Shown one piece after another: positions 1,174 through 3,553 of a stretch of 36,254 nucleotides of DNA. The notes beneath the pieces were generated by a model. That model made no database searches. It had not been told where the DNA came from and saw only the letters and a program-made list of their open reading frames with translations. The translations under genes were made by a program, and so were the position numbers. Each line of letters begins with the position of its first letter. The stretch's first letter is position 1. The DNA lies in IMG/VR virus record IMGVR_UViG_2531839432_000012; one strand, written 5' to 3'. Origin of the DNA: a virus (Duplodnaviria > Heunggongvirae > Uroviricota > Caudoviricetes).

Positions 1174-1728
1174 TCAGCCAACAAATTTAGCAACAAATAC
1201 AGCAACCGCCGCCGTGAAAATGGTTGTGCATACTGGCACAATAATGCCACTCCAACGCCACTTCGTATTATCATCAACCTTGTCAACCCGCCGATTCATC
1301 TCATCCATAATCTTGTCAAAGCGTTTATCCATCGCTTCGGTAAGCTCACCCTTCAGGCTGTTAATGTCTGATTTGAGCTGCTCTTTCAGGTGAGCTGTAT
1401 CAGATTTAAGCTCACCTTTCAGATTCGCAATATCGCATTTAAGATCACCTTTCAGATGAGCAATGTCTGCTTTGAGCTCACCTTTCACCTCACCAACATC
1501 AGCTTTGGTTGAGAGGTTTGTAGTGCGTTCAGTAAGCGTCGCAAGGTCGTTTCTTGTTAGCGATAAATCACCTTCGAGTCGCTCAATTCGCCTTTCAAGT
1601 TTATCTGACATTCCGCCTCCACTACTGCCGCCATCGCCGCCATGATAAAGCACATCACGCTCAGAATGCGACATACTACCTGCTGAATTACCGAAAAGGT
1701 TTCTTGCTGCATTACCCATTTTCACCAT
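1174..1728 (-). CDS. Hypothetical tail-anchored coiled-coil protein: Gly-rich N-terminus, 11-residue tandem repeats, C-terminal transmembrane helix; start may be ATG at 1719 or 1611 rather than 1728
   Basis: ORF of 184 aa; repeats KGELKADIAHL/KGDLKCDIANL/KGELKSDTAHL/KEQLKSDINSL; hydrophobic C-terminus IIVPVCTTIFTAAVAVFVAKFVG; the ATG at 1719 overlaps the stop of the upstream gene (ATGGGTAA). Confidence 0.6.
   Translation of the reverse strand: MVKMGNAARNLFGNSAGSMSHSERDVLYHGGDGGSSGGGMSDKLERRIERLEGDLSLTRNDLATLTERTTNLSTKADVGEVKGELKADIAHLKGDLKCDIANLKGELKSDTAHLKEQLKSDINSLKGELTEAMDKRFDKIMDEMNRRVDKVDDNTKWRWSGIIVPVCTTIFTAAVAVFVAKFVG
1339..1503. repeat. About five tandem 33-bp in-frame repeats encoding the 11-residue coiled-coil repeats of the 1174..1728 protein
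   Basis: Seen in sequence: repeated units of the form atttaagctcacctttcagat...gcaat with minor substitutions. Confidence 0.6.
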
Positions 1729-2214: not shown

Positions 2215-3192
2215 TTACATTCCTCCCAAGGGATTAAACCTCACCGCATCCTGCAAGTAATCCGGCGCAAGATGGGCATAAATCATCGTTGTCTGAATCT
2301 TTGCGTGCCCCAGAATTTTCTGGAGCGTCAGAATATTGCCGCCGTTCATCATGAAATGACTGGCGAATGTGTGGCGCAGCGCATGAACAGCCTGGCCGTC
2401 GGGAACATCAGGTGCGACCGTTTTGATGACATCGCGAACCAATGGATAATCCAGCGTCGGAAACACCAGTTTCCCGCCCCGTTTTTTGATCTTTTCAAAC
2501 AGGCTTTCAGAAATAGGAACGGTACGGTTTTTGCTGTTCTTCGTTTTTGAAAAAGTGATTCGACAATGAAGAACACGGCGCTGCTCCAGTGCCACTACCT
2601 CGCCCCATCGCGCCCCGGTCGACAGAAGGATTTCGACAGCCAGCCGTTCATCAGGATTTTCAGCCAGTGCATCCAGCAACTGAACACATTCAGACTTACT
2701 CAGATATCCCATTTCGCGCTCGTTAACCTTCATTCCTTTAAGGCCTTGAACGGGGTTATCGTTAAGAAAATGGCCGGATGAGATGAGTGCGGTAAACATC
2801 GCGCTTAACGCCCCAATCTCTCGATTAATAGTGCTGGGCTGTATCCCCTGCTCTATCCTGGACACACGTAGCTCGGTGAGCATCGTTGTATTAAGTTTAT
2901 GCACGCACGGGTCATCCATTGCCTCACTCAAGCGCAGCAATTTAAGGCGCGTGTTATGCCCTGACTTCATTAGCTGGCCGTGGTATTTCCACCACAAGTC
3001 AATAAGCACTGACAGCGGACGGCGATCAATGGAGTTTCCTTTCCACTCATTGTTATGCTGTTGCGCCAGCACCCACCGCTCATATAAAACTGCATCCGAT
3101 TTCGTTTTAAATTTTTTACGAATGCGTTTGCCTTTACGCCCCTCCGGGCGCATGTCAAGAAGATACCCTCCCGGAATTGATTTTATGCTCAT
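2215..3192 (-). CDS. int: P2-family tyrosine integrase (start taken at MSIKSIPGGY, not the longer ORF start at 3342)
   Basis: Translation has the phage-integrase C-terminal signature (HALRHTFASHFMMNGGNILTLQKILGHAKIQTTMIYAHL) and N-terminal arm-binding region; position next to the repressor as in P2. Confidence 0.85.
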   Translation of the reverse strand: MSIKSIPGGYLLDMRPEGRKGKRIRKKFKTKSDAVLYERWVLAQQHNNEWKGNSIDRRPLSVLIDLWWKYHGQLMKSGHNTRLKLLRLSEAMDDPCVHKLNTTMLTELRVSRIEQGIQPSTINREIGALSAMFTALISSGHFLNDNPVQGLKGMKVNEREMGYLSKSECVQLLDALAENPDERLAVEILLSTGARWGEVVALEQRRVLHCRITFSKTKNSKNRTVPISESLFEKIKKRGGKLVFPTLDYPLVRDVIKTVAPDVPDGQAVHALRHTFASHFMMNGGNILTLQKILGHAKIQTTMIYAHLAPDYLQDAVRFNPLGGM

Positions 3193-3241: not shown

Positions 3242-3553
3242 TTAGCCGGGCTGTGTGCCAGTCTTGCGGGGTTTTTGAGAAGGCGATGTGCTTTTTGGCC
3301 CATCAGGGGAGAGAGACGGACTGATCTGCCCAGCAGCCTCATTTGTTTCGTTACTCATCAACCACGTGGTGTATTTTTTAAAGTTCGGATGCATTGTGAT
3401 TTTCAGTAAAACCTCCGTCCCCACACCTCTAATACCAGTCTCATATTGCTTAACTGTACCAACCGCAATACCTATTGAATCCGCGAACTTTGCCTGGCTA
3501 AGTCCCTCAGATTCTCGAATTGCTTTTAGCTTCTTTGATATCTCTATTGACAT
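3242..3553 (-). CDS. Immunity repressor (P2 C-like), small HTH protein (start taken at MSIEISKKLKAIRESEGLSQ)
   Basis: HTH-like segment LSQAKFADSIGIAVGTVKQYETG; divergent from the early operon as in P2 int-C / cox. Confidence 0.7.
   Translation of the reverse strand: MSIEISKKLKAIRESEGLSQAKFADSIGIAVGTVKQYETGIRGVGTEVLLKITMHPNFKKYTTWLMSNETNEAAGQISPSLSPDGPKSTSPSQKPRKTGTQPG

Follow-up and report, generated by a model that had tools for sequence, protein, structure and literature searches.

The question raised by this locus is whether a tandem repeat inside a small prophage gene differs in copy number between strains, and what such a difference would do to the encoded protein. The window, i.e. the whole stretch of DNA that was analysed, comprises 36,254 nucleotides of a virus of the Caudoviricetes (IMG/VR record IMGVR_UViG_2531839432_000012) and represents a P2-like Escherichia coli prophage with P2-family capsid, portal, terminase, replication endonuclease and lysis cassette, integrated beside btuC. 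The gene under study lies on the minus strand at 1174-1719 and, based on the list of open reading frames (ORFs) and 55 homologues, encodes a predicted tail-anchored coiled coil of 181 amino acids, here called the stalk protein. An earlier note, made from the letters of the window alone, had described about five near-identical 33-bp units in this gene and had expected the stalk length to change between strains. The length does differ between strains: alleles at one locus carry one to five LKxD units (two to five in those compared as DNA) and differ by exact steps of 33 bp, and the family as a whole comprises one to six units. The feature is the hendecad stalk of a DUF1640-like protein with a length polymorphism resembling that of the Borrelia Bdr proteins.

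Repeat array and architecture of the stalk protein

All features given below lie on the minus strand unless indicated otherwise. Tandem Repeats Finder (TRF) reported a period-33 array in the window at 1383-1506, comprising 3.2-3.8 copies with 75-77% matches and a score of 120-126. Based on this array, the codon register and the self-identity of the gene, five in-frame 33-bp units encoding hendecad units were assigned to 1345-1509: u0 (1477-1509, TKADVGEVKGE), u1 (1444-1476, LKADIAHLKGD), u2 (1411-1443, LKCDIANLKGE), u3 (1378-1410, LKSDTAHLKEQ) and u4 (1345-1377, LKSDINSLKGE). The best self-identity of the gene amounted to 73.7% at an offset of 33 over 99 nt, compared to a mean of 43.4% and a maximum of 51.5% in 1000 codon shuffles, none of which reached the observed value. 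The five in-frame tandem units of the earlier note are therefore present, although it had placed them at 1339-1503 (residues 73-127), which is 6 nt out of phase with the codon register. The description as near-identical does not hold, since any two of the units u0-u4 share 58-76% of their nucleotides and exact in-register matches reach at most 13 nt. The number of about five is correct for the units in register, but u0 represents the conserved beta-layer with which the stalk begins and not a plain repeat copy, so that the array of the window consists of four LKxD units (u1-u4) after the beta-layer unit. Two degenerate 11-residue units also follow, namely u5 (1312-1344, LTEAMDKRFDK) and u6 (1279-1311, IMDEMNRRVDK), which share 67% nucleotide identity.

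The hydrophobic periodicity of residues 71-147 (77 residues) showed a peak at 3.69 residues per turn, compared to 3.67 for a hendecad, and its power was 82.9 at 3.667 versus 0.8 at 3.5. For the N-terminal segment of residues 37-70 a peak at 3.55 residues per turn was determined. The AlphaFold2 (AF2) monomer model, calculated from a 22-sequence alignment with a mean confidence score (pLDDT) of 62, comprises a disordered region of residues 1-35 and predicted helices of residues 37-147 and 153-180, the first of which is continuous and shows its highest confidence over the repeats. The long helix, the hydrophobic C-terminal helix and the periodicity are all in line with the coiled-coil membrane protein that the earlier note had proposed.

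Starting from the N-terminus, the protein comprises a peptide of about 26 residues and the Gly-rich linker GGDGGSSGGG (1612-1719), which are predicted to be disordered (pLDDT below 50 for residues 1-35). The following heptad coiled-coil segment of residues 37-70, MSDKLERRIERLEGDLSLTRNDLATLTERTTNLS (1510-1611), was assigned from the AF2 helix and the periodicity of 3.55 and is the most conserved block of alignment A1. The hendecad stalk starts with the beta-layer motif L69-S70-T71-K72-A73-D74 (1498-1515), which was recognised by its match to the consensus and of which T71, K72 and D74 are invariant in the same alignment. At the other end, a Trp-containing segment adjoins the predicted transmembrane helix of residues 158-177, GIIVPVCTTIFTAAVAVFVA (1189-1248), identified by its hydrophobic sequence and the AF2 helix. 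Since only four residues follow this helix, the stalk protein is considered to be tail-anchored.

The gene is situated within the minus-strand ORF 1174-1728, for which three start codons come into consideration. The ATG at 1719 is the likeliest one, as it is preceded by AGGA, is used by most gene calls and yields the 181-residue protein; the other candidates are the ATG at 1728 and an internal ATG at 1611, which corresponds to Met37 (MSDK...), is preceded by GGAGG, would yield 145 residues and was chosen by PGAP in several genomes. Compared to locus L002, the first 36 codons showed seven non-synonymous and five synonymous codon changes and thus no clear purifying selection. Overlapping plus-strand ORFs at 1153-1371, 1166-1393 and 1463-1645 were rejected as genes, since the minus frame has homologues conserved across genera.

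Two further observations concern the N-terminal part of the gene. In locus L021 (IMGVR_UViG_2671180603_000011) the Gly-rich linker, equivalent to about 1612-1641 of the window, reads GGDGGDGGDGGDGGSSGGG and is 27 nt longer than the sequence coding for GGDGGSSGGG, which corresponds to nine residues or three extra GGD; accordingly, the linker also varies in length. In E. coli M1/5 (locus L041, NZ_CP053296.1) the IS3-family insertion sequence ISEc52 is located at the N-terminal border of the array, equivalent to about 1510 of the window. It truncates the stalk gene, and RefSeq calls the remnant a pseudogene.

Copy number of the repeat between strains

Alleles were sampled from IMG/VR and by exact-protein look-ups, and a scan of GTDB with the family alignment gave at least one locus. 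The compared alleles occupy one and the same site, in the stretch that separates btuC from the integrase gene of this P2-like prophage. At this site, four LKxD units were found in the window, three in locus L004, two in L006 and L007, and five in L002, L003, L031 and L008, the last of which is a complete Salmonella chromosome. Outside the array the alleles are 96-99% identical, as can be seen for L006, which matches at 100 of 102 and 170 of 171 positions, and they differ by exact in-register insertions or deletions (indels) of 33 or 66 bp. On the protein level, near-identical sequences comprise 192, 181 and 170 amino acids, and other homologues form the series 134/123/112, 187/176 and 159/148, in each case with differences that are multiples of 11.

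The end points of the indels fall within short direct repeats present in every unit, namely ATCTGAAAGGTGA followed by CTTAAAT. The allele of L004 equals that of L013 minus one unit, with its junction inside the 13-nt direct repeat ATCTGAAAGGTGA, and the allele of L002 equals that of L013 plus one LKCD unit. From the sequences, this gain could result from an unequal crossover of four-unit alleles of the 'LECD' and 'LKCD' kind, or from a duplication combined with a point change. Two distinct three-unit alleles were observed, one of them without u1 and the other without u2. For the closest clade, at least five independent events can be counted, comprising a duplication and the losses of u1, u2, u1-2 and u1-3. 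The sister clades showed 2-6 and 1-6 units, in some cases with runs of identical units.

A hendecad stalk should change its natural length only in multiples of 11 residues, and this was the case throughout. In 33 sequences of the E. coli/Klebsiella clade, the beta-layer Thr and the juxtamembrane Trp were separated by 39, 50, 61, 72, 83 or 94 residues, a distance that in all cases is 6 modulo 11. The same distance amounted to 54, 76, 87 or 109 residues in the Salmonella clade (n = 10), i.e. 10 modulo 11. A second site of 11-residue indels is located near the membrane, where u6 is present or absent among the homologues (alignment A1 and the stalk table). At this end of the stalk, among the homologues P0019, P0022-P0030, P0031 and P0047, IMDEMNRRFDK is missing from one clade and P0031 carries an extra KRCDRITEDVN. 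The two outcomes that the earlier note had named as speaking against it, an identical repeat number in all homologues and the lack of a hendecad pattern, were both not observed. Since 11 residues correspond to whole helical turns and keep the register, it would be expected that only multiples of 11 are seen. The restriction to whole hendecads thus suggests that what selection preserves is the register of the membrane anchor relative to the beta-layer. Spread over dozens of alleles, such changes amount to a natural experiment in the geometry of coiled coils. That the repeat number of coiled-coil stalks can vary is already familiar, and the clean part of the present case is the quantised series of lengths.

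The frequency of these changes has to be distinguished from their existence. Among 30 loci sampled from IMG/VR without selection, the number of the window was found in 28, while one had five units and one carried a truncated gene (28 of 29 intact loci), and the E. coli complete-genome matches spanning the array all showed the same aligned length as the window (36 of 36). The array is not hypermutable. A proneness to slipped-strand expansion and contraction, as assumed before, is therefore right in that the number varies but overstates the rate; moreover, on these data replication slippage looks the same as unequal recombination between alleles, so that either process may have produced the changes. 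A hypermutable contingency locus, at which frequent slipped-strand mispairing would switch the stalk length within a strain, is accordingly regarded as very improbable. The array is tandem and in-frame, its copy number differs between strains, and the runs of identical units in P0024, P0029 and P0032 suggest recent expansion. Against this stand the constancy just described, the low identity of the units in the window with no exact in-register repeat beyond 13 nt, and the most likely cytoplasmic position of the stalk, which would not expose it to selection by antibody or outside phages. Borrelia bdr loci, too, are stable in vitro and in vivo, according to the title of the paper cited for them. 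The features of simple-sequence contingency loci (identical short units, on/off switching or high-frequency slippage) were not found in the array, and on-off phase variation is ruled out, since 33-bp units never shift the frame. Still less probable, to the point of being hardly credible, is an origin of the copy-number differences in assembly artefacts, i.e. in a collapse or expansion of repeats assembled from short reads. While draft or metagenome assemblies are the source of several variant alleles, the units differ enough from each other for unique placement, the whole array comprises only 165 bp, and the junctions are clean and in-register. Furthermore, the variants recur in independent sources: the two-unit allele is present on 10 contigs, and the five-unit allele was found in the complete Salmonella chromosome, in an ENA scaffold and in an IMG/VR contig.

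Relationship to the DUF1640 family and probable link to the Bdr proteins

The best Pfam match of the stalk protein was CCDC90-like/DUF1640 (PF07798) with 26.7 bits and an E-value of 5.7e-6 over profile positions 68-171. In agreement with this, RefSeq names the gene 'DUF1640 domain-containing protein' or 'CCDC90 family protein'. The protein is also matched by phrog_9415 (E 4e-15), while a search of NCBIfam gave only coiled-coil noise. In the phage GenBank collection, only distant DUF1640 matches were obtained, in Liberibacter phages and one Klebsiella record. Beta-layers have been described in trimeric coiled coils, and the consensus [aliphatic]-A-T-K-[polar]-[DE] is prominent at the stalk start of DUF1640 membrane proteins (Hartmann et al., PMC4786415). 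The motif LSTKAD of the window fits this consensus except that Ser replaces Ala.

When 1.84 billion representatives were searched with the profile, 1399 clusters were obtained at E <= 0.001. Among the best 142 short representatives, the beta-layer motif (ATK-type) was present in 82 and a C-terminal segment resembling a transmembrane helix in 110, and in-register hendecad chains of the ELKxDIAxL type comprised zero to eight units. Relatives with an N-terminal head that were found by the family profile align from position 1 of PF07798 and pass it, with 46.1 (P0050), 51.9 (P0095), 41.5 (P0102) and 44.4 bits (P0182). A prokaryotic family member of known structure, PDB 6H9L, comprises three chains with ATKEDIEALRK 11-mers. 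PDB searches with the single sequence and the profile gave weak matches only, to 6H9L (E 0.09-0.2) and 7O92 (E 0.012), which are leads rather than proof.

Compared to the DUF1640/CCDC90-like family (PF07798; human MCUR1 and CCDC90B, 6H9L), the stalk protein shares the beta-layer stalk start, the ELKxDIAxL-type hendecads, the small size and the Trp-containing juxtamembrane segment followed by a single C-terminal transmembrane helix. The coiled coil of MCUR1 faces the mitochondrial matrix, which topologically equals the bacterial cytoplasm. In contrast to the family, the protein of the window lacks the head and has in its place a short peptide, followed by the Gly-rich linker and the heptad coiled coil, and its gene is always found beside a zinc-ribbon gene, between int and the attachment site (att) of P2-like prophages. 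Altogether, these sequence features strongly indicate a head-less relative of the DUF1640/CCDC90-like family with a stalk of hendecads.

Among characterised proteins, the Bdr proteins of Borrelia are the closest to the stalk protein. They are small inner-membrane proteins that carry tandem repeats in their middle part and a hydrophobic anchor at the C-terminus, and they are encoded on cp32 prophage plasmids. The repeat number varies between Bdr paralogues. Of the 17 records that a tblastn search of a plasmid collection with the protein of the window returned, 15 were Borrelia bdr genes (E about 2e-6). The Bdr of B. miyamotoi (L051:1375-2049, on a plasmid) comprises VKSDLKSDIMS 11-mers of the ELKSDI type and a similar KW+TM end, i.e. 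KW followed by the transmembrane helix, and it passes PF07798 with 41.1 bits. For this pair, BLASTP gave an E-value of 4e-14 and hhalign a probability of 94.6% over the KW+TM segment of the window; these scores, and that of the tblastn search, are inflated by the repeat composition. On the other hand, the protein of the window has no match to the Pfam KID repeat (PF02524) at E <= 0.1, whereas the Bdr of B. burgdorferi B31 (L039:22131-22763, cp32-1) matches KID with 70.6 bits and does not match the CCDC90-like model. The B31 protein mainly shows periods of 18 residues (11+7), and its hhalign probability against the family profile is 15%. The Bdr proteins further differ by an N-terminal head-like segment, and no zinc-ribbon partner was seen adjoining them. 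Based on these comparisons, some Bdr proteins seem to be members of DUF1640, and it is probable that the protein of the window is related to these through DUF1640 and is not a KID-repeat protein. The family is thereby linked to the Bdr of a relapsing-fever Borrelia, B. miyamotoi.

Two other systems can be compared with the stalk protein by analogy. The tail of ZorA in the anti-phage system Zorya is a membrane-anchored cytoplasmic coiled-coil rod, and a weak PADLOC match to it was obtained (E 1e-4), which reflects coiled-coil similarity only. Unlike ZorA, the protein of the window has no MotA/ExbB-type channel domain and no ZorB, ZorC or ZorD partners, so that it is not a member of this system. 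In streptococcal M proteins and the stalks of trimeric autotransporter adhesins, the copy number of in-frame repeats sets the rod length and differs between strains. These stalks are surface-exposed and under immune selection, whereas the stalk of the window is most likely cytoplasmic and strictly quantised in hendecads.

DUF1640-annotated genes were also noticed outside prophages, on plasmids, namely in Aliivibrio fischeri (NC_016851.1, about 73943-74170) and on small Col(156) plasmids (PMC13516913).

Zinc-ribbon partner, proposed role and prophage setting

The stalk gene is the last of four genes on the minus strand, which follow each other in the order cI, int, zinc-ribbon gene and stalk gene with gaps of 49, 2 and -8 nt. 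The cI-like helix-turn-helix (HTH) repressor gene (3242-3553) was identified by Pfam HTH_3 and the annotation of locus L001 and lies upstream of int. The tyrosine integrase gene of the P2-like prophage (2215-3192) was identified by Pfam Int_N and Phage_integrase and the RefSeq annotation of the same locus. The third gene, ORF166 (1712-2212), encodes a 166-residue zinc-ribbon protein with four cysteines (CPSC...CLNC) and matches phrog_4293 (E 1e-22). With its overlap of 8 nt, the stalk gene is translationally coupled to ORF166. A zinc-ribbon gene of the same family was found directly upstream of the stalk gene in 38 of 38 loci, and the pair is also present in Salmonella (btuC site), in Klebsiella (dadX site) and in diverged versions in E. 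coli M10. Three types of zinc-ribbon protein can be distinguished, and in all of the 38 loci each goes together with its own type of N-terminal peptide on the stalk protein. This fits either an interaction of the two proteins or linkage with recombination break points in the region of the Gly-linker and LERRIERLE.

Taken together, the preferred reading, to which we assign a probability of about three in four, is a hendecad stalk that changes in 33-bp steps keeping its register and serves as a cytoplasmic spacer or scaffold, expressed in the lysogen together with the zinc-ribbon partner. The 33-bp repeats encode 11-residue units of three helical turns each, from which the coiled-coil stalk of a small tail-anchored protein of the inner membrane would be built. 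Changes in copy number consist of the exact, in-register deletion or insertion of 33 bp between short direct repeats. From helix geometry, each event would alter the rod by about 1.6 nm, with the register from the beta-layer to the membrane helix being retained. By analogy, the rod would be cytoplasmic and probably trimeric and would keep the N-terminal peptide a fixed distance away from the membrane, because 6H9L has three chains, MCUR1 faces the matrix and the protein is tail-anchored without a signal peptide. The stalk protein may work with the translationally coupled zinc-ribbon protein, and the cI-int transcript may provide for expression of the pair in the lysogen. In phage 186, int is co-transcribed with cI, which together with the gene order found here suggests expression in the lysogen. 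As an accessory module, the pair would most plausibly act as a membrane-anchored spacer or scaffold, possibly in phage exclusion or defence.

Several points weigh against this reading. The PF07798 score of 26.7 bits is below the gathering threshold of 33.5, and the family head (about positions 1-60) is missing from the stalk protein, since the Pfam alignment begins at position 68. The AF2 monomer model is of moderate confidence (pLDDT 62), and the translation of the N-terminal 36 residues appears uncertain from the sequence. Transcription from the lysogenic promoter is derived solely from the gene order. For ORF166, the AF2 model (pLDDT 73) showed no PDB fold match at E <= 0.001; the fold search returned nothing but zinc-ribbon proteins of the ribosome and RNase P, with E-values from about 0.5 upwards, and the Pfam search gave no match. 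A search of PADLOC-DB 2.0 revealed no specific defence-component match for either gene: the matches of the stalk protein were of the coiled-coil type only (LmuB, ZorA tail; E 5e-5 to 2e-2), and ORF166 had one weak match (E 0.005). A search of the available literature found no paper on a module of a zinc-ribbon and a stalk protein. Finally, the rarity of variants among the closest relatives fits neutral, register-constrained drift equally well as adaptive tuning.

Two other explanations of the protein have to be considered. The 11-residue repeats could instead lie on the membrane surface as a class-A amphipathic helix like those of apolipoproteins, alpha-synuclein or perilipin, with the copy number setting the binding area. 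An 11-mer periodicity is typical of amphipathic helices, and the Pfam family Apolipoprotein A1/A4/E was matched with an E-value of 1.3e-5, next to weak PDB sequence matches to apolipoprotein A-IV. The Apolipoprotein score of 25 bits is far under the cut-off of 90 bits, though, and the beta-layer motif at the stalk start is a hallmark of trimeric coiled coils; the related structure 6H9L comprises three chains. The hydrophobic positions of each unit form a narrow a/d/h seam (I, L, L), with which the periodicity agrees. On the whole, the amphipathic helix is considered improbable. The same combination of a coiled coil with a C-terminal transmembrane helix would also be compatible with a lysis or membrane-disrupting factor resembling holin, spanin or XhlA, in which the repeats would be a mere spacer. 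The corresponding PHROG matches (holin E 0.006, Rz-like spanin E 0.007, hemolysin E 0.03) are at the noise level for a protein with a coiled coil and a transmembrane helix. In addition, the prophage has a complete and separate lysis cassette of holin, M15 peptidase, DUF2570 protein and LysC, and the stalk gene lies on the strand of repressor and integrase beside att, far from the late genes, which leaves little room for this function.

The zinc-ribbon and stalk genes could further constitute an undescribed two-gene module for superinfection exclusion or against phages, expressed in the lysogen, in which the stalk acts as a molecular ruler whose steps of 11 residues (about 1.6 nm) determine how far from the inner membrane the partner-specific N-terminal peptide is positioned. 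This extension is tentative and itself rather unlikely. If true, the same ruler logic might explain the long-enigmatic Bdr proteins of Borrelia. The conserved pair in the cargo slot between int and att in E. coli, Salmonella and Klebsiella is a reasonable candidate for phage exclusion. The interval between int and att is a minor defence hotspot of P2-like phages, accounting for 3% of their systems in a 2026 survey (PMC13586616).

In E. coli O26:H11 11368 (L049:3072-3467), this prophage lineage carries an unrelated gene of 131 amino acids in its int-att slot, and therefore this interval can be regarded as a variable cargo slot. E. coli M10 (L050:3091-3890) carries a strongly diverged zinc-ribbon/stalk pair with 11-mers of the LRLEMAESRQS type, of which three units are present compared to two in P0153.

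The border of the prophage follows from a comparison with complete E. coli genomes: positions 985-1064 are common to 5426 of 5426 genomes and thus belong to the host, and positions 1065-1180 occur in 304 and belong to the prophage, which places the junction at about 1064/1065. A strong intrinsic terminator, GGCCGCTCTGCGGCC followed by a T-run (1040-1064), was found by the terminator scan on the host side of this junction, 110 nt downstream of the stalk gene. A search for an att direct repeat within the window found none longer than 12 nt. Positions 1 to about 1064 are host chromosome, with btuC and the region upstream of it. In a 2026 survey, BtuC permease is counted as an auxiliary metabolic gene of P2-like viruses (PMC13100340), and host flanks such as this one could produce BtuC calls of that kind. 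Elsewhere in a prophage of the same type, in E. coli O103:H2 12009 (L001:29253-30528), genes annotated as encoding a ParM segregation protein and a plasmid partitioning/stability protein are located between the replication and portal genes.

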